This document shows, piece by piece, positions 40,070 to 55,390 of a stretch of 64,000 bases of DNA. How positions within the stretch are numbered: position 1 is the first letter of the stretch; each line of letters begins with the position of its first letter. The stretch comes from a virus: IMG/VR virus record IMGVR_UViG_3300032046_006283, positions 9,125 to 73,124 of that record; one strand, given 5' to 3'. Both the position numbers and the translations under genes were made by a program. A model generated the notes under the pieces. It was not told where the DNA came from. It was given only the letters and a program-made list of their open reading frames with translations, and searched no databases.

Positions 40070-40879
40070 TTAACTTTCACTATTATATTTTTCCATCGTC
40101 TCTATATTCTTTAATACAAGTTTTTCAACACTTTCCGAAACAGTTTTAATACCAAAATAATCATCAGGCCTTTTCGGAGCTTCAAAATATAAATCGTGTG
40201 TTTCTTTAATATCAATATCATTCAAAGCACATATAAACGCTTTTGAAGAATCAGCACTTCTAATAAATTCAAAACGTTTCAAATACTTAATCTCAATAGG
40301 ATGTCCTCCTATACCAAGACAATGAAATTGTTTATTATATTTTGAGAAATTAAAATGTTTATTCAAATAACTTATAACTGCAATCCTTAATAAACTTTTA
40401 GGAATACCCCACGCTCGAAATGCTTCATTTATAGCACCATATGAAAAACCTATAGTATCTACTTCATTCATTTGTAATAACTCTAAAAAACATTTTTCAT
40501 ACTCATCAATAGTTTTTCCTTGAGGAACTGCCATTAAACTTAATGACTGAATAATTGATGATGTGTTATTTGATAATTCATTCAGAGCTTCTTTCACACG
40601 TTGAATAGTTATTGCACCATCAAGATAACAATCTGGTAAAACTAATTCTTTAGCCCAAACCAATTCAGTTGCTTTAATAACATCATCTAAAGGAAAAGCA
40701 TTACCATATTCAAAAGCACCATTATCCATTATAATAAAATCATTTCTGAAACTTTTTTCTCGATACACCTCTTCATACTGCTTGTTTTTCAAAACTTCAG
40801 GTGCAATTAAAAGATGTATAGTAGAATTTTGAGTACACATTCTTACATAATTTACAGGAACAATATGACAAATCTTCAT
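40070..40879 (-). CDS. TGT-fold DpdA-like transglycosylase (probable start MKICHIV at 40879)
   Basis: IMDNGAFE, LPD, AVPQG, HCLG and RSADSS correspond to TGT/DpdA catalytic-barrel motifs; the genome also carries queCDE. Confidence 0.7.
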   Translation of the reverse strand: MKICHIVPVNYVRMCTQNSTIHLLIAPEVLKNKQYEEVYREKSFRNDFIIMDNGAFEYGNAFPLDDVIKATELVWAKELVLPDCYLDGAITIQRVKEALNELSNNTSSIIQSLSLMAVPQGKTIDEYEKCFLELLQMNEVDTIGFSYGAINEAFRAWGIPKSLLRIAVISYLNKHFNFSKYNKQFHCLGIGGHPIEIKYLKRFEFIRSADSSKAFICALNDIDIKETHDLYFEAPKRPDDYFGIKTVSESVEKLVLKNIETMEKYNSES

Positions 40880-40880
40880 T

Positions 40881-41417
40881 TTAAAACTCCTTGCAAATAA
40901 TATCTTCAATATGTTTAACTCTTTCTTCAACAGAGCCTCTTATTATAAAGTAATTAGGATACAATGAATAAAAAGTCTCTAATAATTTTTGTATCTCACT
41001 ATCAATAGTTTTTTGATACTCAATATCTTCAGCTCTAACACCATCCCTAACTAATGGAAATTCTATTGGAAGGTAAAAAACAAAATCTGCAAAATGTTGT
41101 GCTTCTAATTGACACAATGCAAATAATAATCTCAATACATAATCAGGTAATTTATTATTTACTGCATAAGCAGTTTGCCGTATTATAGAACTTACAGAAA
41201 TAAAATCTTGTTTTGTATTTGTATTTAATTGATTCAAATACCTTCTAATTGTTGTTAACTGACTTTCTATGTCATTAGTTTTATTTATTTGAAATCCTTC
41301 TTGCTGTGCATTACGATGAATACCATCAATAAGGTGTAAAGAAGGATGTCTCTTTTGAATTTCCTTTGCTAAAACTGATTTACCTGTTCCTTGAGCACCT
41401 ACTAATAAAATTTTCAT
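40881..41417 (-). CDS. P-loop nucleoside monophosphate kinase-like protein (AAA_28/NadR-like)
   Basis: GAQGTGKS, FYLPIEF, DGVR, RGSVEER. Confidence 0.75.
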   Translation of the reverse strand: MKILLVGAQGTGKSVLAKEIQKRHPSLHLIDGIHRNAQQEGFQINKTNDIESQLTTIRRYLNQLNTNTKQDFISVSSIIRQTAYAVNNKLPDYVLRLLFALCQLEAQHFADFVFYLPIEFPLVRDGVRAEDIEYQKTIDSEIQKLLETFYSLYPNYFIIRGSVEERVKHIEDIICKEF

Positions 41418-41429
41418 ATTTTTTCCTTC

Positions 41430-41873
41430 TTAAACAATTCCTATAATATTTGGAAATAATATCATTAACTCTCTTAAAAAAGAGTCTTGAGAATCAGAAA
41501 TATGAATAGCATTAGCTGGTAATTTTGAACCAAATAATTGTCTAATTGTTCCTTCTTCTGCTTTTTCTGGATCAGTATCACCCGCAAGTCTTCTTAAATT
41601 AGAAATGAATTGAGAATATGAAATACCCGAAGTATCTTCAACAACTAAAACTAAAACAGGATCAGAACTCATATATCTAACATTACGTTCAAAAAAATCT
41701 TTTCCTTTATGTTCTTGATAAAACTCACAAGCCCTTTCATAACTTAATAGCATTGTTTGTGCAATTGTAATACGACTTTTTCCTAACCATTCTATTATTG
41801 CAATTATTCTTCCAACATTACCTTCTTTAACTGCATCTGGTTTAATAATACATAAACATAAACATTTAGACAT
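41430..41873 (-). CDS. ndk: Nucleoside diphosphate kinase
   Basis: IIKPDA, FYxEHxGKxFF, GxTDP, GTIR, NAIHxSDS. Confidence 0.93.
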   Translation of the reverse strand: MSKCLCLCIIKPDAVKEGNVGRIIAIIEWLGKSRITIAQTMLLSYERACEFYQEHKGKDFFERNVRYMSSDPVLVLVVEDTSGISYSQFISNLRRLAGDTDPEKAEEGTIRQLFGSKLPANAIHISDSQDSFLRELMILFPNIIGIV

Positions 41874-41885
41874 TTTTATTTCTCC

Positions 41886-42251
41886 TCACGATGATATCTC
41901 ATCTAATTTTGAACCTTCCACCCAAAGGTTTCCTTCTCTATCCTTATAAGCAATTATATGTTCAATAAAAACACTATGAGCAACGTAAACAAAAAGATTA
42001 ACTTCACCTAACTTTTTCAATTCACTTTCTGGAATCTCTTTTGTTTCATTTGTAGGAAAATATAAATCCTTGCCACCTAAATCTAATATATTTAATCCAG
42101 TTTCTTCATAAAATTGATCCACATTATCCCATCCACCTTCTTGAGCATATAATTCTGCTCCTCCTCCCATTTCTGATAATATTTTAACCATTTCCATTTT
42201 TATTCCTCTTTTCTTATAGATCTCTGTGATGTCCAGGTTGAGGATTCCCAA
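41886..42251 (-). CDS. Hypothetical acidic protein
   Basis: ORF only. Confidence 0.5.
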   Translation of the reverse strand: MGILNLDITEIYKKRGIKMEMVKILSEMGGGAELYAQEGGWDNVDQFYEETGLNILDLGGKDLYFPTNETKEIPESELKKLGEVNLFVYVAHSVFIEHIIAYKDREGNLWVEGSKLDEISS

Positions 42252-42312
42252 AAAATAATTTACAACAGAACTGATATAAACAACACTTGATCATCATCTC
42301 CTTATTCAAATT

Positions 42313-42648
42313 TTAAAATTTACTCGGGAAAATTGATATTGGAAAAGTAAGTATCATATAAACTATGCATAACATAAATATTCCCATAATTGGTAAAAAT
42401 ATTCTACCGAACCAATCATTTTCTATTTCATATTCCTTCGGTGGAAATGGTGGGAAATCATCGTCACCAATTAATCCAGCAACTACAGCAGCTGCAGTAA
42501 ACTCAGTCCCGCTATAGATACTATATAGAAGTTGAAACGCTTTTGGTATAAATGCTGATGAAATCAGAAGAACTCCGAATGCACTTACTAGTAAAAATAT
42601 AAATATCAATGATACTCCCATAGCTATTTCTAAAATATGCCAAATCAT
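42313..42648 (-). CDS. Small membrane protein
   Basis: Two to three hydrophobic segments; GGAGG RBS. Confidence 0.55.
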   Translation of the reverse strand: MIWHILEIAMGVSLIFIFLLVSAFGVLLISSAFIPKAFQLLYSIYSGTEFTAAAVVAGLIGDDDFPPFPPKEYEIENDWFGRIFLPIMGIFMLCIVYMILTFPISIFPSKF

Positions 42649-42665
42649 TTCATAACCTCCTTTAC

Positions 42666-43232
42666 TTATTTATCCACTATTTTAAATACACCTTTTTCAA
42701 TCTTCTGAATTCTATACTTTTTCTTTAACTGCTGAATAATTCCATAAATAGTGCGATACTCCATTTTTAATATTTTCACCATTTCTTTCACTGGAGTTCC
42801 TTTTTTAAGTTCTTCAAGAATTTGTTGATTCTCAAATTTACCAGTTTTATTCCTATTTTCTTTTTTAGAACCTTCTTCCACTTCTTCAGTTTCCGGTACT
42901 TTTTTTAATTGCAGAATATACTTTTCAGAAACTTCATCATCATGTGAAATCTTAGCACCAGTTAATATAGAATTAACATTCTTAACTGAAGGTAATGTTT
43001 GAAGGTCAGTAGCCTCCAAAGGATAATCTGGATCTAAAAATAATTCAGTTCCCCAAGAAGTATATACAACAACCTTTTTAAGAATACCCTCAGAATCATT
43101 TTCACGCCTTAAAATTTGAACCGGATAAAAACCCCAAAGACATTCTTTCTTGTTATTATCAAGTTGTTTACCACCTCTTGTTAAATAAATAGATCCTAAT
43201 TGTGCGTCTTTTGCTGCAATTTTTTCTGCCAT
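42666..43232 (-). CDS. Protein with a C-terminal winged HTH
   Basis: ILEELKKG...KEMVKIL...RTIYGIIQQLKK; GAGGAGG RBS. Confidence 0.55.
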   Translation of the reverse strand: MAEKIAAKDAQLGSIYLTRGGKQLDNNKKECLWGFYPVQILRRENDSEGILKKVVVYTSWGTELFLDPDYPLEATDLQTLPSVKNVNSILTGAKISHDDEVSEKYILQLKKVPETEEVEEGSKKENRNKTGKFENQQILEELKKGTPVKEMVKILKMEYRTIYGIIQQLKKKYRIQKIEKGVFKIVDK

Positions 43233-43252
43233 AACTATACCTCCTCTTACAA

Positions 43253-43267
43253 TATATTATACACAAA
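43253..43267 (-). promoter_or_regulatory. Putative promoter motif TTTGTGTATAATATA
   Basis: Identical to 36078-36092. Confidence 0.55.
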
Positions 43268-43311
43268 TTCAAAGGTATAGTTGCATATTATTTTATACAA
43301 TCTATATCTTT

Positions 43312-44403
43312 TCAATTTTCATTCAAAAAATGTTTTGTAAGCATTGATAATATTCTACCACCAATCGCTTGCAGTTGTAAAGAACTTCTCCATTCATATT
43401 TTTTACTACAATCAGTCACTCTATTATAAGCATCATAAACATTAACATCAGTAGCTTCCGGTTCTTTTTGACCTTCTGCAAACAATTGTCTATTATAAGA
43501 TCTCTTAAAATCAACTAAATGAAGAATTGTTTTTCGTCCTTCTTCATCTTTTCCTATAACAGAATCGGCTTGTTCTTTACCCGCAATTCGATTAACAGCT
43601 TTCCAAACACTCTCAACTTGAAAATCAGTCAAAGAAGTTTCTGGTATTTTACTATAAACAGTACTTAGTCTTTCAACGTTCACTTTTAAATTTTGAACAT
43701 TCTGCATGAAATATTGAAAATCTTTATTCAAAGAAATATTCTTATTCGAATCCCTTCTTACACATCCCCAATCGCTTGTCATCGTAGCACCATTCTGGCA
43801 AGTAAGTCTGTAAAGATAAAGACGTGCCATCGCATCTCTATCTCCAGTATCTGAATTTAAAATACGAAAACCTATTTTTGTAATATCTCCAACTTTCGGT
43901 TCTAAAGGTTTTATTGCTGAATTTATTACATTAAGGTCAAAACCACGAGGCCCTATTCTCATTGATTCCCATTCAATGGTAGTCATATTCTTAAAAAGTT
44001 TGTCAATTTCTGTCAAAAATTCTTTATTAGGAAAAGGTCTATATTTTGACTTAACAATATTTACAATTTCATTTTCTTTTCCTATAAGAAGAATTATACC
44101 TTCATCTTTTTTCTCTCGAAGTAACCGAGTAATATTCTTCTGTAACAAATCGATCGGAATCTTTCTTGCAAATGGATCTGGAATTTGTAAAAACCTACAA
44201 AGAGATTGTAAACTCCATTGCGTCATCTTTCTAATGTTAGTATCTACAATTAAATTAGCAATACCATCTAAAGAAACCTGAATGTCAGCAAAAGACACCT
44301 TCTGAGAAGTGGTATCAAATGGCTCAATTGATTGCAGTGCATTTTCCATATTTAACACATTTACACATTCTTTTTCTGGTGCAAAATCTAATTCTTCATA
44401 CAT
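43312..44403 (-). CDS. DUF932/DUF945-like protein (probable start at 44403)
   Basis: ILNSDTG...YRLTCQNGA; GGAGG RBS before MYEELD. Confidence 0.6.
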   Translation of the reverse strand: MYEELDFAPEKECVNVLNMENALQSIEPFDTTSQKVSFADIQVSLDGIANLIVDTNIRKMTQWSLQSLCRFLQIPDPFARKIPIDLLQKNITRLLREKKDEGIILLIGKENEIVNIVKSKYRPFPNKEFLTEIDKLFKNMTTIEWESMRIGPRGFDLNVINSAIKPLEPKVGDITKIGFRILNSDTGDRDAMARLYLYRLTCQNGATMTSDWGCVRRDSNKNISLNKDFQYFMQNVQNLKVNVERLSTVYSKIPETSLTDFQVESVWKAVNRIAGKEQADSVIGKDEEGRKTILHLVDFKRSYNRQLFAEGQKEPEATDVNVYDAYNRVTDCSKKYEWRSSLQLQAIGGRILSMLTKHFLNEN

Positions 44404-44465
44404 ACAAAATCCTCCTTTTACTTTTAAATACACAAATTTTTTCCAAAACCAAACAATTATATTAA

Positions 44466-45227
44466 TTATTTTACTTTAACTTTCATTAACTCTTTAACAA
44501 TTATATTTTTATTATTCAAAATATCACTTTCCCAAAACCTCAATACTATAAATCCATTTTCTTTTGCTAATTGCTCATTTTTAATATCTCTTTCTTTTTG
44601 TTTTAATTGTATTTCATTTAATTTACTATAAATTTTCGGATTACCATGCCAGTAATCTCCATCTACTTCTACTAAAACGTTAGTGTTCAAAAAATGAAAA
44701 TCTGCTAAATGGCTACCTACACAGTATTGTTTTTCATAAGGAATGTTCAAAAATATTAGTATCTCTTCCATTTTAAGTTCAGGTTTAGTATCTTTGTAAG
44801 GACCTTTATAATTTTGAAATTGAAATAATGTTTTTTCGCGTATTTTATTTTTTGTTCTTTCAGAAAGTTTTCTTCCTTTAAGTTTTTCACTTCCCTTTTT
44901 TATTCTTTCATCTGTTTCCTTTGTTAATCCTTTATTCCAAGCTTTACGCTCCATATTCGCAATACTTATTTTTTTCTTTATAACATCAGAAAGGGGTTTC
45001 CTTTTTTTACCTTTTTTTAAATTGCTTAATTTTTTTCTTGTATCATTAGAACGTTTTTGACCTGTATTTGCAATTTTTATTTTTTTAATTACTTCAGGGC
45101 GATTCATTACCTCTTTTGTATGATTACTTATTAACTTTTTTATTTCATTTGCTTTTTCAGTTCCAAATATTTCTTCAAAAGTTTTACCTTTATTCCATGG
45201 AATATGCCCCTTTATATATTTACTCAT
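44466..45227 (-). CDS. Freestanding endonuclease: NUMOD3 repeats plus a DUF559/Vsr-like domain
   Basis: PWNKG, AWNKGLTKET, TKPE, ADFH, VEVDGDYWHG, LRFWE. Confidence 0.82.
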   Translation of the reverse strand: MSKYIKGHIPWNKGKTFEEIFGTEKANEIKKLISNHTKEVMNRPEVIKKIKIANTGQKRSNDTRKKLSNLKKGKKRKPLSDVIKKKISIANMERKAWNKGLTKETDERIKKGSEKLKGRKLSERTKNKIREKTLFQFQNYKGPYKDTKPELKMEEILIFLNIPYEKQYCVGSHLADFHFLNTNVLVEVDGDYWHGNPKIYSKLNEIQLKQKERDIKNEQLAKENGFIVLRFWESDILNNKNIIVKELMKVKVK

Positions 45228-47749
45228 CCCTTCTCCTTTAATTCTACCAATTTACCCCATCTATCACCTACAGAAATATCAACACCCATCTTAACACGAA
45301 TAGGACCTGCTATAGTATCATAGCCTCTTGCAACTTCCTCTTTTATTATTTTAATAAAATTATCTTTTTCTTCTATTGGAACTTCATAAATTAAAGAGTC
45401 ATGAATAGTAAGAACTAATTTTGCTTTACTCTTTATTTGTTTTAAACGATTATAAATTCTAATGCCAGTTATAGCAGTAATATCAGCAGCCATCCCTTGT
45501 ATTGGACTATTAACAGCTTGCCTCATTGCATCACTTCGTTCTTTTCTATCATGCATATCCATATTATCATTCCAAGGAATTTGTGCTGCAGGAAGTCTTC
45601 TAATTCTTCCAAAAGCGTTTCTTACTTCACCATATTTTTGAGCTACTTTTTGAATATTAAATATCCATTCCTTTGCTTTTGGATATCGATCAAAAAATAC
45701 TTTTCTAATATATTCAGCTTCTTTTTCTGTCATTCCATGCTCTTCTGCTAAACTTTTTGCACCACGGCCAAACATAATTCCAAATACAGAGTTTTTTGCT
45801 TGCTGCCTTTCCTCTTTTGTAATCGTTTCTATTTTCTTACCAAAACAAACAGATGCTGTTTGTTTATGAATATCAATACCAGATTTTATATCTTCAGTCA
45901 TTTTTGGATCGTTAGAATAATGGCCCCAGCATCTAAATTCTGCTTGCCTTTGATCAATTTCTACTAAAACACATCCAGAATTAGGTATAAAACATTCTTT
46001 AATTTCACTGCCTCGAGGAATGTTTTGAAGATTAGGATTCGTACTCGAAAGTCTACCAGTTACTGTTCCATCTACATGATAATCTGTATGAATTCTACCA
46101 TTCTCATCTACTCTATTAAGCATTCCTATAACATAAGTACTATATAATTTACTTAAATCACGATGTTCTTTCAATTTAGTTAATTCTGGAGAGTATTCTA
46201 CTAAAACATCTAAAGTTTCTGCATCTGTAGATAAATTCCCTTTTTTAGTTTCTTTTACCGGTTCAAGTCCAAGAACATCAAATAACAATATTCGTAATTG
46301 TGTAGGAGAATTCATATTAAAAACAATAGGTCTTACATATTTTTGCACATATTGTTCTTTAGTAAGTTTTGATTTTATTTTTAAACTATCATACTTCTTT
46401 TCAACTTTTTTCGCAGCAATATCCCACAATCTTTTTTCAGTAATGTTCACTGCGTCTGTTTCTCTAAATTCTTTTTCAATGACTTTTAAACGTTCTGAAT
46501 ATTTAACTTCCAATTCTCTAAGGCGCTCTATATCTAATCGGACGCCATCATATTCAGTATCTATTAATACTTTCTGAAATGGTATGGTAATCTTGTTAAG
46601 CAGCCTCATTAATCCTTGTTCTTCAAGCATTGGCTTAAATTTCTTATAACAACAAAAAGTTGCATCAGCATCCATCGCAGAATATTTCCAAAGAATATCA
46701 TTTGGAATAATTGCATAAGAAATATTTTTTGTTGTTAAATATTTATCCAACACATCTTCATATCGCCCCATATCAGGGAAATAGCGCAAGACCATAGGAG
46801 TTAATCCATGTCCTTCTCTTCCTGCATTCTCATCTAAAAGATGATGCGCAAGCATTGTATCAAACGCAAAATTATTTACTTCAATCCCAAAAGTTCTTAA
46901 AAACTGAATATCAAATGATAAATTTTGTCCTATTTTATAAACATTATTTTCTAACACTTTTTTTAGTTCACTCACTACATATTCTTTTTCTTCGGAGTTC
47001 CAAAACTCTTGACAATATTGTTGCAATATAGGCAAAACTACTCCTGTTCTTTCTTTCCAAGAAAAACTACAACACAAAATTTTATCTTTTTTAGGATCTA
47101 AACCACTTGTTTCTAAATCCAAAGTAAAAGCTTCAGCACTGTTTAATTTCTCAAAAAGTGTTTTAGCTTTCTTTATCGTATTCGCAACTACATATTTTGC
47201 AGGTTCTGGTTCTACAGGATTATTCAACCATTTTAAAACATTTCTTAAATGGTCTATCATTGTCTCTTGCATTCCTAAATTTCTACAAATATATGCGGGG
47301 TGATAAGTAGGCATTATCCAACAATTATATTTATCACTCCAATAACGAGATCCTGCATATTTTGTAATACCATCTAAATTAAGTAAATATTGAAGAGCAA
47401 CATTACCTAAAGGAACAATAATTTTTGGTTTAGTTATTCTAATATCTTCTTCAAGGTAAGGAACACAAGCATTTATTTCTTCTGGTTCGGGGTTTCTATT
47501 ATCGGGAGGACGACACTTCACTACATTATCAATTCTAAAATCCTCTCTACGTGCTTTTATTAATTGTAAAATAATATTAAGGCGCTTACCAGCAGCTCCT
47601 ACAAAAGGCTCTCCTATTTCGTCTTCTTCTACTCCTGGGGCTTCTCCAATTAACATTATATTAGCGGGAGTAGGACCTATACCTTTAATACAAGAGTTTT
47701 TACACTCTTTAAATAAAGAACACTTATTACAATTCATATACTTTACCAA
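45224..47749 (-). CDS. polA: Family A DNA polymerase with an N-terminal family-4 uracil-DNA glycosylase domain and a 3'-5' exonuclease
   Basis: UDG: CxxC, GEAPG, PFVG, KCRPP, YHP; exonuclease: DLET; polymerase: TGRLSS, NLQN, DxxQAE, RxxAK, NSPIQG, HD. Confidence 0.93.
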   Translation of the reverse strand: MVKYMNCNKCSLFKECKNSCIKGIGPTPANIMLIGEAPGVEEDEIGEPFVGAAGKRLNIILQLIKARREDFRIDNVVKCRPPDNRNPEPEEINACVPYLEEDIRITKPKIIVPLGNVALQYLLNLDGITKYAGSRYWSDKYNCWIMPTYHPAYICRNLGMQETMIDHLRNVLKWLNNPVEPEPAKYVVANTIKKAKTLFEKLNSAEAFTLDLETSGLDPKKDKILCCSFSWKERTGVVLPILQQYCQEFWNSEEKEYVVSELKKVLENNVYKIGQNLSFDIQFLRTFGIEVNNFAFDTMLAHHLLDENAGREGHGLTPMVLRYFPDMGRYEDVLDKYLTTKNISYAIIPNDILWKYSAMDADATFCCYKKFKPMLEEQGLMRLLNKITIPFQKVLIDTEYDGVRLDIERLRELEVKYSERLKVIEKEFRETDAVNITEKRLWDIAAKKVEKKYDSLKIKSKLTKEQYVQKYVRPIVFNMNSPTQLRILLFDVLGLEPVKETKKGNLSTDAETLDVLVEYSPELTKLKEHRDLSKLYSTYVIGMLNRVDENGRIHTDYHVDGTVTGRLSSTNPNLQNIPRGSEIKECFIPNSGCVLVEIDQRQAEFRCWGHYSNDPKMTEDIKSGIDIHKQTASVCFGKKIETITKEERQQAKNSVFGIMFGRGAKSLAEEHGMTEKEAEYIRKVFFDRYPKAKEWIFNIQKVAQKYGEVRNAFGRIRRLPAAQIPWNDNMDMHDRKERSDAMRQAVNSPIQGMAADITAITGIRIYNRLKQIKSKAKLVLTIHDSLIYEVPIEEKDNFIKIIKEEVARGYDTIAGPIRVKMGVDISVGDRWGKLVELKEKG

Positions 47750-47928
47750 TACTTTTTATCTGCTTTTTTAACTGACTTAAAAGGATCAAAATTTAATTCT
47801 ATCATACGTTCAATCTTATCAAATTCAGCTTGAAGTTCAATATACCGTAAGTATTTACGATATTTAAACGAAAATACTATTTTAAACAAATGAATAAGTC
47901 GATATAAAATTTTCTTAAATTTATTCAA
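47743..47928 (-). CDS. Small hypothetical protein
   Basis: ORF overlapping the polA start. Confidence 0.4.
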   Translation of the reverse strand: MNKFKKILYRLIHLFKIVFSFKYRKYLRYIELQAEFDKIERMIELNFDPFKSVKKADKKYW

Positions 47929-48099
47929 ACTTAATTTCTATTTTAACTTAAAAAATATTTGTTTCAATGTTTTTAAATTAAGATACTTTCTTTCTTTTAA
48001 AATCAAAATGAACCTTTTAGTAATTCTATACCACCAATGCCAAAGATAAAAAATAAATCCAATCCAAAATATTAAAAACACAACGCTTAAATAATACAA

Positions 48100-48306
48100 T
48101 TATTTTCCTTCAACAAATTTAGCTTTTTTTGAATCATTTCCAGGAAATCCAGAACCTTTAAAAATAATACCTCCAGAACCTCCTGTAATAAGACTGGGGA
48201 TTTTCTCACCACATTGTGAACATTTATCAACATGTTCAACATTCATAGGCATTTCTTTTTCCCATTTAATATTGCATTTTTTACAAAAAAATTCATATGT
48301 AGCCAT
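48100..48306 (-). CDS. FmdB-like zinc-ribbon protein
   Basis: MATYEFFCKKC...CSQCG...IIFKGSGF. Confidence 0.75.
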   Translation of the reverse strand: MATYEFFCKKCNIKWEKEMPMNVEHVDKCSQCGEKIPSLITGGSGGIIFKGSGFPGNDSKKAKFVEGK

Positions 48307-48319
48307 AAAATACCTTTTA

Positions 48320-48550
48320 CTACTTATTCTGGCTGAGTTTATAAGATGCATACATCTTTTGTAAATGTTCTATAAATGAAGACAATTCCCTAACTTTAAT
48401 AAAAAATATTCCAGTGTCAGAATCAGTTACTAAAAGATTCTCTTCTTTTAAATACTTGATAAATCCTTCATGCATTAATTCAACTCTAAGATCACTATTC
48501 TCTGTTGGAGTAATACACAATTCCAATTCTGGAATAAGAGTATTATCCAT
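48320..48550 (-). CDS. Hypothetical protein
   Basis: GGAGG RBS. Confidence 0.5.
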   Translation of the reverse strand: MDNTLIPELELCITPTENSDLRVELMHEGFIKYLKEENLLVTDSDTGIFFIKVRELSSFIEHLQKMYASYKLSQNK

Positions 48551-48560
48551 AAGTCACCTC

Positions 48561-49028
48561 CTATTTATTTTTATTTTCAATTAATTTTTGTTTCAATTTT
48601 TCCCAAAAAGCACATGGACTTGCAGCCATTATTTCATATTGCCAAATATTCTTTAACTCAAAAAATTTATCATTCGCAACACTATCTTCAAGATAGTTTT
48701 TAGTCATAAAAGTCCATATAATTAAAATAGAATTAGGATTATTTTCTAAAAATTTCTCTATTCTTCTTCCATAACTATCTATTAATCCTGGAGAGCCTAA
48801 CATTATTCCTCCATAATCTACTACTAAAATATCAAAATTTTCATTATCTAAAGAAAGGTCCCTAAGATCTCTAAATACAAAATCAATCTCCGGCATAAAT
48901 TCTTTAAAATATTTCTTAATCGTTTTTCTCTCATCTTCTGGAGTTGTTTCTATAATTAATGGCCTCATAAAATCAACAAATATTCCAACCGTTAATTTTT
49001 TTGTTTTACTTTTTTCTTTTTTACTCAT
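48561..49028 (-). CDS. Hypothetical protein, possibly receiver (CheY)-like fold
   Basis: IFVD...FDILVVDY...ILIIWT spacing resembles a receiver domain; weak. Confidence 0.35.
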   Translation of the reverse strand: MSKKEKSKTKKLTVGIFVDFMRPLIIETTPEDERKTIKKYFKEFMPEIDFVFRDLRDLSLDNENFDILVVDYGGIMLGSPGLIDSYGRRIEKFLENNPNSILIIWTFMTKNYLEDSVANDKFFELKNIWQYEIMAASPCAFWEKLKQKLIENKNK

Positions 49029-49171
49029 CTAATTTATCTCCTCTATTTCTTCATATTGAGTATCAAATTTTTGTAGATCAATATCTTGGATTATCCCCAT
49101 TGTTAACATTACTAAATATAAAACGATAAAGTAAATAATAATTCGCTTTAATATTTTTTTAATATTTATTT

Positions 49172-49609
49172 TCATCTACCACTACTTCCATATCCTTTTT
49201 TTCCTCTTTCACTCTTTGAAAGTTTATCAACTTGAATCAACTTAGTTTTTGGTAATCTAAAGAAAATAATTTGAGCTATCTTATCACCTTTTAAAATTTC
49301 CATAGCTTCTGCTTTATTCGAACATTGTGAACTATTCCGAATAAAAATAGACACTTCATTTCTATAACCAGAATCTATAACTCCATGATGCACAACTTTA
49401 CCTTCTTTTCCATAACTACTACGAGTAAAAACTATACCAACCCATCCAGGAGGAATTTCAAAGCACACTCTAGTATGTACTTCAGTGCATTTACCAAAAG
49501 GAATTATAACATCTTCAGTCGCATACAAATCCCACCCAGCATCATATTCATACGCTTGAGTTGGCAACTTAGCATCTGGATGTAATAACTTACATTTTAC
49601 TTTAATCAT
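49172..49609 (-). CDS. dut: Trimeric dUTPase
   Basis: AGWDL, RSS, GVIDSGYR, IAQ, RGxxGYGSSG. Confidence 0.9.
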   Translation of the reverse strand: MIKVKCKLLHPDAKLPTQAYEYDAGWDLYATEDVIIPFGKCTEVHTRVCFEIPPGWVGIVFTRSSYGKEGKVVHHGVIDSGYRNEVSIFIRNSSQCSNKAEAMEILKGDKIAQIIFFRLPKTKLIQVDKLSKSERGKKGYGSSGR

Positions 49610-49621
49610 AATTTTATCCTC

Positions 49622-49984
49622 TCATCTCATCATCGAATTAATTATACAAACTATTTCTTTCCAGTTATCTTCAAATCTTATACCCCTGTCATCAATATAA
49701 ACATCTGCAACTACTTTTCCTTCAATTCCTTCATCAACCTTATCAAAAGGAATATTATTTTCTCTCAAAAACTTTTCCATAATTTGTTTTTGAGCTGCTC
49801 TTTCAGTAATACTTGAATGTATCATAGCATTTGTTCTACAAGATGTAACAATAATGAAACATCCTAAATAATCTTTCAATAAATTAATACTATAAACAAC
49901 ATCTTCCTTCAAAGGTCCTATTTCAGGATATGTATCTTCAACTATAGTTCCATCAAAATCTATTGCAACATAAAATGGTCTCAT
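49622..49984 (-). CDS. HAD-superfamily phosphatase
   Basis: AIDFDGT, TSCR, K..ADVYIDDR. Confidence 0.8.
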   Translation of the reverse strand: MRPFYVAIDFDGTIVEDTYPEIGPLKEDVVYSINLLKDYLGCFIIVTSCRTNAMIHSSITERAAQKQIMEKFLRENNIPFDKVDEGIEGKVVADVYIDDRGIRFEDNWKEIVCIINSMMR

Positions 49985-50547
49985 TGTACACTCCTAACCT
50001 TATAACAAGCTTGTTGAATATTATCAAATTCTTCTGCAAAATTTTGCATTACAAACCTACTCCAAGAAGCTAAATCCAAATCTTTATCAAAATCTAAAAA
50101 TCCAGTAGCCCTAACAGGACAATTTTCTCCTACTTCAATATTTAATCCTATATGTATAAGGCCTGAAACCAAAGACTTTGTTGCAATTGAAACAGAAAAC
50201 TTTTTATCATTAATAAAAATATCATCTCCTTTTCGTTCTATTGACATATCTTCCAAACTAGCTCTCCGTTGAAGATGATCAACAATTATTGAAATAAAAA
50301 GTCTTTGAAAAGCAACTGTTTCTCTTAAAGAGGCATCAAAAATTTCAATAATAAAATGTAACATTTTTTCACTACTAATATAATCTCCGGCTAAACGATC
50401 TTCACAATCAACCAAATGTTCTCTCACTTTCGCAGGTCCTATAAAACAAACAATACTATTACCTACAAGATCATTTTCATAACCAAAAAGCGAATGCAGC
50501 TGTGTACCATCATACTTTAATTCATTTTCTAAAAATTTATATTTCAT
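49981..50547 (-). CDS. DUF366 family protein (biotin/lipoate ligase-like fold)
   Basis: YDGTQL, SIVxFxGP, LVDxED, MLHFIxE, QRL, RKGDD, KFSVSIA, HIGLN; directly downstream of queC. Confidence 0.75.
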   Translation of the reverse strand: MKYKFLENELKYDGTQLHSLFGYENDLVGNSIVCFIGPAKVREHLVDCEDRLAGDYISSEKMLHFIIEIFDASLRETVAFQRLFISIIVDHLQRRASLEDMSIERKGDDIFINDKKFSVSIATKSLVSGLIHIGLNIEVGENCPVRATGFLDFDKDLDLASWSRFVMQNFAEEFDNIQQACYKVRSVQ

Positions 50548-50549
50548 AT

Positions 50550-51251
50550 TTACTCCTTTTGATATTCTATTGTATCTTTTAAATTGTTTGCTTCAAACGC
50601 TGCTAACCTTTCAATACAAGCGGGACATTTACCACAAGAAGGTTTACCTTTATAACAGGAATGAGTTAAATGATATGGAACACCTAATTTCATTCCTATA
50701 TCAACGATTTCTATCTTTGTCTTTTCAACAAATGGTGTATGAATAAATACTTCCACTCCATGCGTAGAACCTAAACTTAATGCCTTTTCTAAGCAAGTAA
50801 AGAAAGGTCTACGGCAATCTCTATATGATTCATAATCTTCTTTCACAGGAGTCATATAAATTTCAATAGGATTAAGTTCTAAAGATTCTCCGTATGCCGC
50901 TGCTAATGTAGCTAACATTACATTACGAAAAGGAACAACTGTTTGAATCTGATCTTCCATATTTTCAGGAACCTTCCAAGTATTATCTGTTAAAGCACTA
51001 TGACCTATGTGAGTTAAATCAAAATTTAAAACCTTTAAATCTTTTACTACATAATCTCCATACCTTTTTTGATACTCTTCAACAACCTTTTTTGCAGCTT
51101 CCAATTCCACGACATGTTTTTGACCATAATTAACACTCAAAGAATAAATTTCACTCATTACAAATTCAAATTTAGGATCTAACAAATAACCGAGTAAAGT
51201 TGCCGAATCCATACCACCTGATAAAAGAATTATACATCTTGGTCTTGTCAT
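50550..51251 (-). CDS. queC: 7-cyano-7-deazaguanine synthase
   Basis: LSGGMDS, NYGQKH, VPFRN, YxDCR, SCY, CGKCPAC. Confidence 0.92.
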   Translation of the reverse strand: MTRPRCIILLSGGMDSATLLGYLLDPKFEFVMSEIYSLSVNYGQKHVVELEAAKKVVEEYQKRYGDYVVKDLKVLNFDLTHIGHSALTDNTWKVPENMEDQIQTVVPFRNVMLATLAAAYGESLELNPIEIYMTPVKEDYESYRDCRRPFFTCLEKALSLGSTHGVEVFIHTPFVEKTKIEIVDIGMKLGVPYHLTHSCYKGKPSCGKCPACIERLAAFEANNLKDTIEYQKE

Positions 51252-51265
51252 TTTATTATTCTCCT

Positions 51266-51736
51266 TTATTTCTTATTGTTTTCATAAGGAAATTCGATCC
51301 AACTATCTGCGTCTGCCCCTGCAATGAAATAATCAGGATCAAACTGCGAACCTCTTTTATAATATAATACACTTGTTCTAATATTATTGAACCCTTTTTC
51401 TTTATATAAATCAACTACTACCTGCATTGTCTTTCCCGTATCACATAAATCATCAATGATCAAAATTTTACTTTCTTTTGTGATATCAGGAAAGCACAAA
51501 TATGAAGGTTTTCCAAGTTTTAACTTTGATTGTTTATTTTCTTTAGTATAAGAACTAGCAACAATTATGTCTAGTGGAACGTTATAAGCTTCAGATATTA
51601 TAAGTCCTGGAAGAAGTCCTCCACGAGAAATCGCAACAACAAGATCAATTTCTTCTTGAGCATGAACCAACAACATTTCTTTAAGTTTATTAATTAGTTG
51701 TAAATAATATTCCCAAGATACTTTTTCTATATTCAT
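51266..51736 (-). CDS. Type I purine phosphoribosyltransferase
   Basis: AISRGG, PRPP loop LIIDDLCDTGKT, WIEFPYE. Confidence 0.85.
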   Translation of the reverse strand: MNIEKVSWEYYLQLINKLKEMLLVHAQEEIDLVVAISRGGLLPGLIISEAYNVPLDIIVASSYTKENKQSKLKLGKPSYLCFPDITKESKILIIDDLCDTGKTMQVVVDLYKEKGFNNIRTSVLYYKRGSQFDPDYFIAGADADSWIEFPYENNKK

Positions 51737-52518
51737 TTATTAACCTCTAATAAACTATTTATTGTTTTTTCGCAACATTCTTTTTTTATATCTATAACAA
51801 AACATCTTCTACCTGTTTTTTCTGCCTCAACTAATGTAGTGCCGGATCCTACAAAAGGATCAAATATAATATCATTAATAACTGAGTACATTCGAATAAG
51901 TCTGTAAGGTATTTCATTTGGAAATGGAGACATTTTTTCATAATCTTTTTTACCTGCAATTGCCCAAATTTGAGAAAACCACTTATTTCTTTCTTCAAAA
52001 GTATAAGCACTTGCATATCTATTTTTATCTTTTGACAAAAACTTTCTAATATTTCCTTTTCTAAATAATAAAATAAATTCACAGTCAAGAGTTACATAAG
52101 CATTAGTTGGAAGCATTCCACTCCCTAAAAAACTATTAGGTTTATTTGTTGGTTTTTTCCACAAAATATAAGGTAAAACATTAAAACCCAAATTTCTAAA
52201 ATTATTCAATATTATAGAATGATTTTCCCATAATTGAAAATTATCATTAATTTTCCGTAACGCATCTCCTATATTAATACAAACAATACCTCCTTCAATA
52301 ACACTATCAAATAAACAATCCCATACTCTATTCAAATATAAATGTTGAGACTGAAAGTTTCCTTCCCAATTCCACTTTTCAAACATAGGATAAGGAGGAG
52401 ATGTAACTACTAAATTAACTAAATGTGTTCCTAAAAGATATTTAATATGCGCAGGATTTGTAGCATCCCCCCACATTACTCGATGTTTTCCATTAGTCCA
52501 AAATTCGCCAAAATTCAC
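51733..52518 (-). CDS. DNA methyltransferase, beta class (SPPY, probably N4-cytosine)
   Basis: VTSPPY upstream of DPFVGSGTT; PFP...RLIRMYS. Confidence 0.85.
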   Translation of the reverse strand: MNFGEFWTNGKHRVMWGDATNPAHIKYLLGTHLVNLVVTSPPYPMFEKWNWEGNFQSQHLYLNRVWDCLFDSVIEGGIVCINIGDALRKINDNFQLWENHSIILNNFRNLGFNVLPYILWKKPTNKPNSFLGSGMLPTNAYVTLDCEFILLFRKGNIRKFLSKDKNRYASAYTFEERNKWFSQIWAIAGKKDYEKMSPFPNEIPYRLIRMYSVINDIIFDPFVGSGTTLVEAEKTGRRCFVIDIKKECCEKTINSLLEVNK

Positions 52519-53180
52519 TATACACCTCTTTTGTTTCCCCAGATTATTTTATGTATTTGAAGACTAAGTTTTACATTAAGATTATCTTTTAAAATCCATT
52601 TCGCAAGATCTTTTGGATTCAATTTTTCCCAAACCGGAGAAAACAAAATACTTCCTTTAATATTAAAATTTGTAATAATTTTCTTAGCAAAATTATAATC
52701 ATTTTTATTAGCAATTACAAATTTCACCTCATCATCTTGACGAATATCTTTTAAATTAATCCAACACATTTTTTCAGTCATTCCAGTAGAAGGACATTTT
52801 ATATCCATGCTAAAAGTCACATATGCTAAATACTTTTGTATAGGAATACTTCCGTTAGTTTCAATTAAAATAAAATATCCATTATTATATAATTTCTCAA
52901 CAAGAACAAAAGAAGTAGGATCTAACAATGGTTCTCCTCCTGAAAGTAATATATTTTTACAATTATATTTTTTTACTTGATTTAAAATGTCATTTATTGA
53001 CATTTCTTTTCCTTGATTATAAGCATATGGAGTATCACAAAAACCTTTTCCATTATAATTACAACGTAAATTACATCCTGTAGTTCTTATAACAATAATA
53101 CGAGTTCCACTAGTTTTCCCTTCGCCAGATAAAGTATAATATATTTCATTAATTTTCAATTTATCATCTTTCAATATCAT
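52518..53180 (-). CDS. queE: 7-carboxy-7-deazaguanine synthase
   Basis: EIYxTLSGEG, GCNLRC(insert)FCDT, GGEPL, IETNG, KFVI, QIHK. Confidence 0.9.
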   Translation of the reverse strand: MILKDDKLKINEIYYTLSGEGKTSGTRIIVIRTTGCNLRCNYNGKGFCDTPYAYNQGKEMSINDILNQVKKYNCKNILLSGGEPLLDPTSFVLVEKLYNNGYFILIETNGSIPIQKYLAYVTFSMDIKCPSTGMTEKMCWINLKDIRQDDEVKFVIANKNDYNFAKKIITNFNIKGSILFSPVWEKLNPKDLAKWILKDNLNVKLSLQIHKIIWGNKRGV

Positions 53181-53790
53181 TAATTACTCCTTGTTTCAAC
53201 CAACTTTTTATAGGTTCAAAAGTTTTTCTATGATATGGAGTAAGTCCATATTTTTTAATTGCTTCAAGATGCTGTTTTGTACCATATCCAATATTAGTTC
53301 CCCATCTGTATACTTTATACTTTGGATTTTCGCCAACTAACTTTTTTATATATCTATCTCTTAATACTTTTGCAATAACAGAAGCAGCCATAATTGCAGA
53401 AATTTTTGTATCCCCTTTCACAATCCATCTTTGAGATGCTTGTAACTTTTCTATATGTCCTTTTCCATCTATTAATACTTTATCTGGAATTCCTTTTCTT
53501 TCAATTACTTTATCAATAGCTCTTTTCATAGCTAAACGTTCTGCATAATAAATATTCAATTCTTCAATTTCCTCAACACTCGCATGACCTATTGCAAAAG
53601 TAATTTTTAAATCTTCAATTTGTTTAAAAACTTCTTCTCTTTGTTTAAAATTTAATTTTTTTGAATCATTTAATCCTTCGATATTATATTTTTTATCCCA
53701 CCATATAGCACCTGCAACGACAGAGGCTACCAAACTTCCACAGCCACAAGCATCACATCCAATTATATGTTTAAATATTTTCATTACCAT
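53164..53790 (-). CDS. rnhB: Ribonuclease HII homolog with an altered first motif
   Basis: DSKKL, IDG, KGD, AASVIAKVxRD, GYGT, HRKTF; N-terminal GCDACGCG in place of DEAGRG. Confidence 0.8.
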   Translation of the reverse strand: MVMKIFKHIIGCDACGCGSLVASVVAGAIWWDKKYNIEGLNDSKKLNFKQREEVFKQIEDLKITFAIGHASVEEIEELNIYYAERLAMKRAIDKVIERKGIPDKVLIDGKGHIEKLQASQRWIVKGDTKISAIMAASVIAKVLRDRYIKKLVGENPKYKVYRWGTNIGYGTKQHLEAIKKYGLTPYHRKTFEPIKSWLKQGVINDIER

Positions 53791-54086
53791 CCATCTCCGC
53801 TATCTGGCCAAGGGTCCATCAATTCTTCTGTGGTTATTCCTAATAATCTCATCATTTGATTACTGCTCATACCCTCAGTTCCAGTATCTACTTTGATTGA
53901 TTCATTTTTCCAACATTCATCTACAGAATTATTTAGATTAGTTTCTATTCCATAATTTAATTGTGCCCCTTCATATCGCGCGTAAAATATCTTTCCAATG
54001 TCTAATTCTCCTTCCCATTGAGAAGGATACGCGCCAGAAGTTTTACGTAATTTTTTAAGTTTTAATCCAAGATTAATTGATTCCAT
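53784..54086 (-). CDS. Hypothetical protein
   Basis: AxPSQWEG...YARY motif; RBS present. Confidence 0.5.
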   Translation of the reverse strand: MESINLGLKLKKLRKTSGAYPSQWEGELDIGKIFYARYEGAQLNYGIETNLNNSVDECWKNESIKVDTGTEGMSSNQMMRLLGITTEELMDPWPDSGDGW

Positions 54087-54099
54087 TTTTATTCTCCTT

Positions 54100-54903
54100 T
54101 TAAAAATCCCAATTTCTTTTAAAATAAGCTACTGCATTATGTGCGTGAATACTTTCAAAAGAAATAACTTTAACACTATAACCTTTAATATTAGATATTT
54201 TATCTAGAGCAAGAGCAGTATCCCTTGCAACATCTTCTACAAACTTTGGATTCTTAAAAGAAAATTCAGTAACATACTTTTCATCTGGTCTTTTCAGTAC
54301 AGGATAAATTCCACAACTACCCATTTTTTCTAATATCGAAACAACATCTTCAATCCATAAAGGTTTTCCAACAAAGTTCAAACGTGCTGTTACAAGCGCT
54401 CTCTGATTATGTGCTCCAAATTTGCTTATTTCTTTACTGCAAGGACATAAAGTAATTATAGGAACAGATACCTCTAAATAAAACTCATATTCTTCAGAAG
54501 TTAATCGTCCAACAAAAGCACATTCATATCCTTGAATTCCAGCAACTTTTTTTACAGGTGATTCTTTCGGAATAAAATACTTAAATTTTATACTTGCATA
54601 TGAATCTTTTGTTTTAAGGCTCCTTTTTAATTCTTTCAAAAATTTCTTTAACTTTTTCGAATTCATTGTTTTATAACGATAATTCATTAAAGTAACAGCA
54701 AAACGGCTCATATTTATACCTTTTATATCTTCTGAAAGATCACCATACATTGATACAATCGCTTGAGTATGTTGATATTTTCTTTTTTCTTTCCTACCTA
54801 CTAATATTGGAAAACTAACATCTTCTATACCAACTCTATGAAGAGGAATTCCGCGTTCATCTTTCGTAGCTTGCACATCGGGCAACTGCTCTTCTTTTTG
54901 CAT
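54100..54903 (-). CDS. folE2: GTP cyclohydrolase I type B (probable start MQKEEQ at 54903)
   Basis: LPDVQ, RVGI, KGINMSR, TLCPCS, GAHNQR, KRPDE, NPKFVED, ESIHAH. Confidence 0.92.
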   Translation of the reverse strand: MQKEEQLPDVQATKDERGIPLHRVGIEDVSFPILVGRKEKRKYQHTQAIVSMYGDLSEDIKGINMSRFAVTLMNYRYKTMNSKKLKKFLKELKRSLKTKDSYASIKFKYFIPKESPVKKVAGIQGYECAFVGRLTSEEYEFYLEVSVPIITLCPCSKEISKFGAHNQRALVTARLNFVGKPLWIEDVVSILEKMGSCGIYPVLKRPDEKYVTEFSFKNPKFVEDVARDTALALDKISNIKGYSVKVISFESIHAHNAVAYFKRNWDF

Positions 54904-54940
54904 TTTACAGAATCTCCTTCTTTTATAGGATTCAAAATAA

Positions 54941-55390
54941 TTATTTTTCGTATATAGCACTTGAAGTAAGTGTTTCAAAAACTTCAACACTTACAAATTT
55001 AATTTTACTAACTCCTTGTTGAATAGAACTTCCAAAATGATTTGGCCCCCAATTAGTTACAATGTAAAAAAGATGAAACAAATGCTTAGCCATATTTTCT
55101 GCTGTAGGATTACCTTGTAAAGTAAATATTTTTGTTTTTTCAGATAGTAAACGTACTAAAGGATCTTTATCATATAATATAAGAGAATGATCCCAATTAA
55201 TATCAATCCAATTTTTAATTTCTCTCTTTATATATGAAAAATCAAGAACCATTCCCATCTCATCTAACTCTTTAGCTTCAAAAGTAAAAATTGCTTTATA
55301 AGAATGTCCATGGATATTACCACAAGAACCTTTATATCCTAGCAACCGATGTGCCGCTTCCCACTTAACTTCTTTGGTTACTTTATACAT
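54941..55390 (-). CDS. queD: 6-carboxytetrahydropterin synthase
   Basis: AAHRL, CxxIHGHSY, GMVLDF, DH, PTAEN, ET. Confidence 0.92.
   Translation of the reverse strand: MYKVTKEVKWEAAHRLLGYKGSCGNIHGHSYKAIFTFEAKELDEMGMVLDFSYIKREIKNWIDINWDHSLILYDKDPLVRLLSEKTKIFTLQGNPTAENMAKHLFHLFYIVTNWGPNHFGSSIQQGVSKIKFVSVEVFETLTSSAIYEK

Follow-up and report, generated by a model that had tools for sequence, protein, structure and literature searches.

A putative DpdA3-type system for wholesale guanine replacement in a large uncultured phage

Introduction

How some phages replace every guanine (G) of their DNA is an open question. Papers of 2019 proposed that a modified deoxyguanosine triphosphate (dGTP) is made, and a pre-replicative hypothesis is already in print for Campylobacter phages (cited in Hutinet 2019). 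According to Cui 2023, G is replaced completely (100%) in phages carrying the transglycosylase DpdA3; its authors judge insertion to be post-replicative, yet could not show DpdA3 activity. The same question is raised by a 64-kb stretch of an uncultured virus (IMG/VR record IMGVR_UViG_3300032046_006283, positions 9,125 to 73,124 of a 73,124-bp contig, i.e., G000:C1:9125-73124), hereafter ‘the window’. IMG/VR labels the contig ‘provirus’, and CheckV estimates its completeness at 33%, so genes may be missing. Between 40070 and 55390, the window carries a DpdA3 gene, a kinase gene that appears translationally coupled to it, the genes for the 7-deazaguanine precursor preQ0, and a phosphoribosyltransferase (PRTase) gene, a set whose best explanation from sequence is a DpdA3-type system for wholesale G replacement in a large uncultured phage.

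An original prediction, drawn from the letters and open reading frames (ORFs) of this region, had named folE2, queD, queE, queC, a PRTase gene by queC, a HAD phosphatase, a dUTPase, a trio of nucleoside diphosphate kinase (NDK), kinase, and TGT/DpdA-like genes (TGT, tRNA-guanine transglycosylase), and a polymerase gene (PolA), and had proposed from them that G is substituted before replication. Family scans find every one of these genes, all on the minus strand. The proposed route gains from the 9 of 20 loci that have a kinase gene next to DpdA3, from kinase fusions in 5 of the best 150 relatives, and from the PRTase in phages phiST and immuto, but it remains unproven and is not new. The prediction had also passed over three genes of the region, encoding a DUF366 protein, an N6/N4 DNA methylase, and RNase HII, and two outside it, encoding an ArcS-core protein and a deoxyribosyltransferase-family protein.

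The DpdA3 Transglycosylase

40070-40879, minus strand: DpdA3-family TGT-fold transglycosylase of 269 amino acids (aa), assigned by tblastn, the A1 profile, a profile match to 7ui4, and an AlphaFold2 (AF2) model

The translation start is placed at the ATG at 40879, not at the TTG at 40930 (ORF 40070-40930), because residue 18 of the query is where nearly all of the 150 listed homologues start and an AAGGAG sequence lies inside the end of the upstream kinase gene. The ORF has no match in Pfam or NCBIfam. By tblastn, the protein reaches 19 phage records, among them Cellulophaga phage phiST CGPG_00065 (7e-10), which Cui 2023 named DpdA3 in the paper that defined this subfamily, and the ‘DNA guanine transglycosylase’ of Flavobacterium phage immuto (1e-4). 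A1, a family profile built around the window protein, gives E-values of 1.4e-54 for phiST, 5.1e-55 for immuto (gp206), 5.8e-57 for Youna2, and 5.8e-40 to 2.7e-42 for CP220 gp056; CAjan DpdA1 goes undetected by the same profile even at E = 10. Profile matches of 1e-40 to 1e-57 to DpdA3 members thus settle the subfamily and bear out the suspicion that this is a divergent DpdA of the extensive-replacement kind.

A HMMER search of 1.84 billion representatives returned 2228 relatives at E <= 1e-3. In a 74-sequence alignment, D52, H186, G189, and D210 are invariant, and D83 is invariant or near-invariant. The family profile matches the solved bacterial DNA-guanine transglycosylase DpdA (7ui4, E 2.8e-4), with D210 aligned to its nucleophile Asp256 and the Gln of AVPQG aligned to His181, while D52 would act as the general acid. 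The AF2 model (pLDDT, the predicted local distance difference test, 96.5) is a bare TGT barrel, for which Foldseek finds ArcTGT (1iq8) and bacterial and human TGT as best matches, at a probability of 1.00. Sequence comparison establishes membership in DpdA3 with an apparently intact transglycosylase site, and transglycosylase catalysis is predicted from the residues of that established site and from the barrel.

One metagenomic representative, P0141 (597 aa), holds the DpdA3 barrel in residues 2-251 and continues for ~345 further residues that match no Pfam or PDB sequence. Its C-terminal part is nearest to nucleoside-phosphorylase-domain clusters in the protein Atlas (feature score 0.94), which is a lead and not a result. 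A search for DpdA3 forms of at least 497 aa found none, which is weak evidence, and related-locus searches with P0133 and P0002 returned no relatives.

A Kinase Coupled and Fused to DpdA3

40881-41417, minus strand: P-loop kinase of the AAA_28/NadR-RNK/deoxynucleoside-kinase type (PF13521, 5.8e-10)
41430-41873, minus strand: NDK (PF00334, 1.3e-34)
45224-47749, minus strand: PolA, comprising uracil-DNA glycosylase (UDG), 3'-5' exonuclease, and family-A DNA polymerase (PF03167, 3.3e-32; PF01612, 9.3e-26; PF00476, 2.6e-101)

The kinase gene stops 1 nt before the DpdA3 ATG, and the AAGGAG within its end is a Shine-Dalgarno sequence; read from these letters, the kinase is translationally coupled to DpdA3. 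Its family profile matches the deoxyguanosine/deoxyadenosine kinase 2jaq, the deoxynucleoside kinase 8puu, and NadR (6gye, 1lw7), and its model (pLDDT 89.4) has as best Foldseek matches the deoxyadenosine kinase 2jat, thymidine monophosphate (TMP) kinases, and the NadR RNK domain (template modelling score up to 0.77). Because both profile and model match nucleoside and nucleotide kinases, we take it for a small-molecule kinase and not a ParB-like ATPase such as DpdB. The earlier label, ‘NMP-kinase-like’ (NMP, nucleoside monophosphate), is corrected to the nucleoside-kinase, NadR-RNK, or TMP-kinase type. A complex prediction for kinase and DpdA3 scored 0.00, which speaks neither for nor against binding.

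The arrangement recurs. Twenty DpdA3 loci were compared (the window, immuto, CP220, four isolate loci, and 13 from IMG/VR); nine of them, from about five independent lineages, have a P-loop ORF of nucleoside/nucleotide-kinase type within 700 bp of DpdA3. Three types share this place: AAA_28 (window, L005, L006, immuto gp203, and CP220 gp057), TMK-like (Youna2 and BSTP12), and a third, GEICSGK type (phiST CGPG_00066 and MA9V-3). Kinase–DpdA3 coupling recurs among phages that infect Campylobacter, Flavobacterium, Cellulophaga, Chryseobacterium, Bacillus, and Weizmannia. Among the best 150 of the 2228 DpdA3 representatives, six exceed 400 aa, and five of these have an N-terminal Walker-A kinase-like domain fused before the barrel. 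The Pfam matches of the five domains are weak, with only two above the gathering score; homologues of the fused domain are encoded just ahead of DpdA3, on its upstream side, in Youna2 and BSTP12 (2e-12, 3e-13), and the domain resembles phage ‘thymidylate/deoxyribonucleoside kinases’. NDK is also present in relative L005, with no match in L006.

Kinase matches across 50,697 phage records include none from a Queuovirinae phage, and the first 50 kb of CAjan hold no homologue of kinase or PRTase. In many of the matches listed from Streptomyces phage records, the kinase match also overlaps an annotated methyltransferase gene. Our literature search found no paper linking DpdA3 to kinases or to the PRTase, and ‘kinase’ and ‘phosphoribosyl’ each have 0 occurrences in the main texts of Cui 2023 and Hutinet 2019, where the coupling and fusion of kinases with DpdA3 and the recurrent PRTase are undiscussed.

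The fusion of UDG to PolA seems to be shared by L002, L003, L009, L012, L013, L015, and L017, because the tblastn alignments begin at query residues 5-15. In a 2026 paper (PMC13697223), genomes with modified T are linked to one group of PolA enzymes fused to UDG; in the loci studied here, the fusion is associated with G replacement.

Synthesis of preQ0 and the Phosphoribosyltransferase

54100-54990, minus strand: FolE2, type IB GTP cyclohydrolase I, GTP to dihydroneopterin triphosphate (H2NTP) (PF02649, 5.1e-80)
54941-55390, minus strand: QueD, 6-carboxytetrahydropterin (CPH4) synthase (PF01242, 1.2e-27; TIGR03367, 1.2e-23; CxxxHGH motif)
52518-53180, minus strand: QueE, radical-SAM 7-carboxy-7-deazaguanine (CDG) synthase (TIGR04349, 2e-64; phrog_2076, 7.6e-42)
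50550-51251, minus strand: QueC, preQ0 synthase (PF06508, 3.5e-53; PP-loop SGGxDS and C-terminal Cys cluster)
51266-51736, minus strand: Gpt-like 6-oxopurine PRTase (PF00156, 5e-19; phosphoribosyl pyrophosphate (PRPP) loop; 14 bp from QueC)

All four enzymes of the preQ0 pathway (FolE, QueD, QueE, and QueC) are present by Pfam and NCBIfam matches and, for QueD and QueC, by signature motifs; as shown by homology, they are predicted to convert GTP to preQ0. QueD is distinguished from DpdL by its CxxxHGH motif, and QueC falls marginally under the equivalog cut-off of TIGR00364 (148.2 against 150.3 bits). The four genes lie 9.6-14 kb from DpdA3 on the same strand, and que genes occur in 17 of the 20 DpdA3 loci.

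The best NCBIfam match of the PRTase is the xanthine PRTase NF006613 (2e-18, under the cut-off), and the protein may serve either guanine salvage or 7-deazaguanine ribotidation. Homologues were found in 16 phage records, nine of them from the phiST and immuto groups, in which G is fully replaced, and also in L007, L012, L016, L018, G001, and G002.

Replacement in the Nucleotide Pool or in DNA

Three further genes enter the proposed pathway.

36095-36898, minus strand: ArcS-core (ArcS2-like) protein (PF17884, 1.6e-9, partial, 59 residues)
49622-49984, minus strand: small HAD-type phosphatase, its start overlapping the DUF366 stop (NF046079, BT0820 family, 4.1e-13, under the cut-off; phrog_1238, 8e-19; DxDGT motif)
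G000:C1:1-462, minus strand, at the contig end and outside the window (locus L040): nucleoside 2-deoxyribosyltransferase-family gene (PF05014, 36.1 bits against a cut-off of 28.8, match G000:C1:100-447)

We tentatively favor a pre-replicative, pool-level insertion of 7-deazaguanine, without calling it probable. In its full form, which we hold more tentatively still, DpdA3 would not modify DNA at all and would be the first member of the TGT superfamily to exchange the base of a free deoxynucleotide. In this phage, as in CP220, phiST, and immuto, DpdA3, kinase, and NDK would build a 7-deaza-dGTP pool for incorporation at replication, and the PRTase would close the guanine cycle. The steps would run as follows. 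FolE2, QueD, QueE, and QueC would take GTP to preQ0, which the ArcS-core protein could carry to archaeosine (G+). DpdA3 would exchange guanine on a free deoxynucleotide or deoxynucleoside and not in finished DNA (dGMP + preQ0 -> dPreQ0-MP + guanine), the coupled kinase and adjacent NDK would raise the product to the triphosphate, and the phage’s own PolA would incorporate it. The Gpt-like PRTase would return the freed guanine to GMP and then to GTP for FolE2, so that the pathway would close on itself, and the HAD phosphatase and the deoxyribosyltransferase-family gene may give a parallel entry at the nucleoside level. From these steps we infer a predicted end product of dPreQ0 or, via the ArcS-core protein, deoxyarchaeosine (dG+).

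The ArcS-core protein matches the ArcS alpha family NF040592 at 1.2e-14, far under the cut-off, and carries the C1 motif that Cui 2023 gives as PC-x3-KPY-x2-S-x2-H, except for R in place of K (PC-x3-[K>R]PY-x2-S-x2-H). It may convert preQ0 to G+, as an ArcS-core relative and not a proven G+ synthase. The deoxyribosyltransferase-family protein has a Glu in the expected segment, presumably the catalytic one, and could exchange bases at the deoxynucleoside or deoxynucleoside monophosphate (dNMP) level; PF05014 also holds dNMP N-glycosidases. This gene occurs in 4 of the 10 DpdA3 records searched (its own, G001, G002, and G003) and not in CP220, immuto, phiST, Youna2, G004, or G005, and it was rejected on that count as a general part of the module.

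The published model explains the gene set almost equally well, and we regard it as possible, if somewhat doubtful. Here, PolA copies with dGTP and DpdA3 then swaps every G in the DNA, while PRTase, kinase, and NDK salvage the freed guanine to GTP for FolE2, or else the P-loop protein is an ATP-using DpdA3 helper like DpdB. DpdA3 is, after all, homologous to the polymer-acting DpdA and TGT and keeps their catalytic residues; Cui 2023 argues from the presence of DpdA in every deazaguanine phage, and bacterial DpdA requires an ATPase partner (PMC10164549). What inclines us to the pool-level model is, in part, that the kinase and not the PRTase is coupled and fused to DpdA3, whereas the natural fusion partner in a salvage line would be the PRTase, whose substrate is guanine. 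Three unrelated kinase subfamilies occupy the place beside DpdA3, suggesting selection for an activity and not for a specific protein partner, and the kinase fold is that of nucleoside and nucleotide kinases, unlike the ParB-like DpdB. Cui 2023 reports the nucleoside of 7-amido-7-deazaguanine (ADG) in CP220-infected cells, and in its E. coli plasmid assay, where other DpdA proteins were active, DpdA3 left the DNA unmodified. Pool-level systems typically replace a base completely, and all three phage groups with experimentally 100% replacement (CP220, immuto, and phiST) carry nucleotide-enzyme extras beside or with DpdA3. Salvage after replication also leaves the HAD phosphatase and the deoxyribosyltransferase-family gene unexplained. 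On the side of the pool-level model we further count that no Queuovirinae phage is among the kinase matches, that the first 50 kb of the DpdA1 phage CAjan are free of kinase and PRTase homologues, and that TubE offers a precedent for a PRTase acting on a 7-deazaguanine.

A number of findings weigh against the pool-level model. No TGT-superfamily enzyme is known to act on a mononucleotide, and the characterized relatives all act on polymer. PRTase, kinase, and NDK, which the original prediction had taken as pointers to a pre-replicative route, map exactly onto the steps guanine -> GMP -> GDP -> GTP and so fit recycling in a post-replicative model equally, and post-replicative insertion is what Cui 2023 concludes. 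By the profiles used, no P-loop kinase ORF lies within 700 bp of DpdA3 in 11 of the 20 loci; in one of the loci, L014, a Walker-A ORF 1.8 kb upstream of DpdA3 matches no kinase profile and no Pfam family. Neither kinase family searched, the AAA_28 profile or PF02223, is matched in a complete 52.5-kb DpdA3 phage (G005; 100% complete, with direct terminal repeats). The AAA_28 kinase family also extends beyond phages with DpdA3, as 89 of 108 phage records with it are of Streptomyces phages; in the one examined, Mildred21 (L045), the kinase lies beside a methyltransferase and there is no DpdA3 anywhere. The PRTase, for its part, is missing from CP220 (whole record, PF00156), Youna2, and MA9V-3.

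Several signs that might have told the two models apart do not. CAjan DpdA1 acts on DNA. It has 306 aa and an isoelectric point (pI) of 6.26 and lies ~1 kb from its polymerase gene; the DpdA3 family has a median pI of 6.05 (5.6 for the window protein), and DpdA3 lies directly upstream of PolA in 8 of the 20 loci. Size, acidity, and closeness to the polymerase do not separate DpdA3 from the DNA-acting DpdA1. On these grounds we discarded small size, lack of the Zn subdomain, and acidity as signs of a small-molecule substrate, and likewise the position upstream of PolA as a sign of pool-level exchange, a closeness on which the original prediction had relied.

Removal of canonical dGTP, which the same prediction had assigned to HD or dUTPase-like enzymes, concerns two genes.

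49172-49609, minus strand: trimeric dUTPase (PF00692, 2.9e-28; TIGR00576, 104.2 bits against a cut-off of 102.55)
31403-32026, minus strand: HD-domain phosphohydrolase (PF01966, 35.4 bits, above the cut-off)

The dUTPase carries all five canonical dUTPase motifs, so it is probably a true dUTPase and not dGTP-depleting, and it was dropped as a candidate dGTPase. The only HD protein found lies 8 kb outside 40070-55390, where the prediction had expected one; it has no PDB or NCBIfam assignment, is not similar to CP220 gp055, and is a weak candidate for removal of dGTP or dGMP. PDB sequence searches with this protein and with the deoxyribosyltransferase-like protein gave no match. It thus counts further against the pool-level model that no dGTP-specific hydrolase is evident here. 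In favor of that model, a single-pass search finds nucleoside triphosphate (NTP) pyrophosphatases of the MazG-like or dUTPase families in 14 of the 20 loci, and an iterated one finds them in 16; here, MazG is not among the best 25 of 36 families, on a contig that is 33% complete. Beside or near DpdA3, one ORF each in L008 (469-1290) and L010 (9165-10037) combines a DpdL-like T-fold with a MazG-like domain, and one in L015 (2815-3654) combines a MazG-like domain with QueD.

A ribotidation route of the tubercidin/toyocamycin kind is unlikely. In this scheme, the PRTase joins preQ0 or CDG to PRPP, kinase and NDK phosphorylate the product, a ribonucleotide reductase deoxygenates it, and PolA incorporates it, leaving DpdA3 as a clean-up or tRNA enzyme. 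The scheme accounts for the place of the PRTase gene directly between QueE and QueC, and for its homologues within or near the que genes in immuto, L007, L012, L016, and L018; precedent for a PRTase on a 7-deazaguanine exists in TubE, a proven CDG:PRPP phosphoribosyltransferase (PMC6112128), and the nearby HAD phosphatase recalls ToyI, listed in a review as the toyocamycin dephosphorylating enzyme, its function unverified. Set against this, the PRTase has its best family score with Gpt-type xanthine/guanine enzymes and is missing from the DpdA3 carriers named above, DpdA3 being the constant element; no ribonucleotide reductase turned up on this contig, which is 33% complete, and no dedicated search for one was made. 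That the nucleotide enzymes are ordinary auxiliary metabolism genes (e.g., NAD or nucleoside salvage with a NadR-like kinase), near DpdA3 only through the clustering of phage replication genes, is very improbable, for while the AAA_28 kinase is widespread in Streptomyces phages, its relatives are called ‘nicotinamide riboside kinase’ by some sources, and NDK, dUTPase, and RNase HII are common phage genes, a coupling seen as a 1-nt gap and as gene fusion recurs across six host genera with different kinase subfamilies.

With DpdA3 tied to kinase and PRTase, the question of total replacement becomes accessible to a handful of direct enzyme assays. Should the nucleotide route of the pool-level model be true, it would offer a new enzymatic synthesis of 7-deaza-dNTPs, useful as reagents, and a new activity for the TGT fold, and it would suggest a general rule: partial replacement by exchange at the DNA level, total replacement by exchange at the pool level.

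Genomic Setting and Neighboring Genes

The window has a GC content of ~29%, with all substantial ORFs on the minus strand and no tRNA genes, and megablast of the whole region against phage records gave no match. Two IMG/VR contigs, one of 168 kb (rated 90% complete) and one of 107 kb, come closest, sharing the gene order and 57-63% identity in the DpdA-like protein. A 5.2-kb contig binned with a Cloacimonadota metagenome-assembled genome carries QueE-PRTase-QueC-DUF366-HAD-dUTPase at 42-69% identity and is a weak hint at the host of this phage.

49981-50547, minus strand: DUF366 protein, conserved QueC partner (PF04017, 9.5e-55; PDB 2ddz, hypothetical protein, 2e-20)
51733-52518, minus strand: N6/N4 DNA methyltransferase inside the cluster (PF01555, 6.2e-35)
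53164-53790, minus strand: RNase HII inside the cluster (PF01351, 9e-27)

A QueC homologue lies directly beside DUF366 in 20 of 22 genome loci (L018-L039), from Bdellovibrio and relatives, Gastranaerophilales, and one Cloacimonadota contig. In 19 of these loci, DUF366 directly follows QueC on the same strand, and in L019 it is on the opposite strand; L033 and L039 have no linked que gene beside DUF366. On a Methanobacteriaceae contig, DUF366 adjoins QueD-QueE instead of QueC. The only structure of the family is 2ddz, a ‘hypothetical protein’, and a whole-word literature search for DUF366 or PF04017 found no paper mentioning it; the window and these loci give this uncharacterized family its first functional context, as a QueC partner. 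The HAD phosphatase is kept beside DUF366 and dUTPase in L005, L006, and L018.

The methyltransferase is absent from the matching position of relative L018, and the PRTase gene of phiST likewise adjoins an RNase H gene. Besides the N6/N4 gene, the window may hold as many as two further genes of DNA methyltransferase kind, likewise on the minus strand, at 58653-59201 and 31999-32571; these include one of MT-A70 type and a weak adenine-methylase-like match. Methylation may therefore coexist with G replacement in the genome.

A complete PrkA-DUF444/YeaH-SpoVR trio, in bacteria an operon of the stress/sporulation type, lies within the window at 14011-18571 (minus strand; PrkA 16544-18571, DUF444/YeaH 15426-16544, and SpoVR 14011-15429). 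A DnaG-type primase is apparently split, with the CHC2 zinc ribbon by DnaB and the catalytic core/Toprim 26 kb off (56428-57171 and 29783-30481, minus strand). Two DUF559/Vsr-like endonuclease ORFs (44466-45227, directly after PolA, and 1047-1964) may be homing endonucleases. Two very long ORFs, of 2431 and 1412 aa, are found at 1974-9269 and 18622-22860 on the minus strand.

Comparison with Known Systems

The logic proposed here is that of phage T4, which makes its modified nucleotide before replication with dCMP hydroxymethylase and a dNMP kinase. The Z-genome phages (PurZ/MazZ/DatZ) likewise replace a base before replication (PMC8342488). Common to these systems and to the proposed one would be the conversion of a canonical dNMP to a modified one, its phosphorylation by a kinase and NDK, and its use by the phage polymerase, with NTP pyrophosphatases nearby. 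They differ in that the modifying step here would be a TGT-fold base exchange, which is unprecedented, and in that no enzyme removing canonical dGTP was found by the checks of the top family list, the dUTPase, and the HD protein on a contig that is 33% complete.

The tubercidin/toyocamycin clusters (TubE/ToyH) also group genes from GTP to CDG or preQ0 with a purine-type PRTase and a phosphatase. They are secondary-metabolite clusters without TGT or DpdA, and the likeness of their PRTase to that of the phage rests on gene grouping.

Bacterial DpdABC (PMC10164549) and the DpdA1 of CAjan share with the window protein the superfamily, the catalytic Asp residues, and a base supplied by FolE, QueD, QueE, and QueC. 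They modify a fraction of G at sequence motifs, and DpdA requires the ParB-like ATPase DpdB.

Nearer to the window are the DpdA3 phages. phiST (Cellulophaga; 2'-deoxy-7-deazaguanosine, dDG) carries a MazG-like gene, DpdL, a small P-loop-like ORF (CGPG_00066) that ends 2 bp before DpdA3 (CGPG_00065), and a PRTase in its genome. QueC is missing from phiST, where 7-deazaguanine is made by way of DpdL; its P-loop is degenerate (GK then D), and its PRTase lies 17 kb away beside an RNase H gene. Campylobacter phage CP220 (Firehammervirus; deoxy-ADG, dADG, with 100% replacement according to Cui 2023, which has the pathway stop at CDG/ADG) has its DpdA3, gp056, 42 bp from an AAA_28 kinase, gp057 (7.1e-34). 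Its gene row (L044 5050-7543) consists of gp055, an HD + AAA_33 P-loop fusion, gp056, annotated as ‘hypothetical’, and gp057, annotated as ‘thymidylate kinase’; unlike in this phage, the HD + AAA_33 fusion flanks DpdA3, and the whole record has no PF00156 or PF05014 protein.

The closest system is the DpdA3-type module of immuto (immuto_2-6A, 2023, PMC10516641). It shares DpdA3, the AAA_28 kinase (gp203, 2.9e-34 with the window-family hidden Markov model), and, among its que genes, a PRTase homologue (gp211, 1.7e-14); QueD, QueE, and a polymerase of family A also lie within a few kb. immuto has FolE1, QueF, the formyltransferase DpdN, leading to fdPreQ1, and a MazG-like hydrolase, whereas this phage has FolE2 and no QueF, DpdN, or DpdL. 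To the module of immuto it adds NDK, DUF366, the HAD phosphatase, the dUTPase, the ArcS-core protein, and the deoxyribosyltransferase-family gene, and it places the kinase upstream of DpdA3, in apparent translational coupling.

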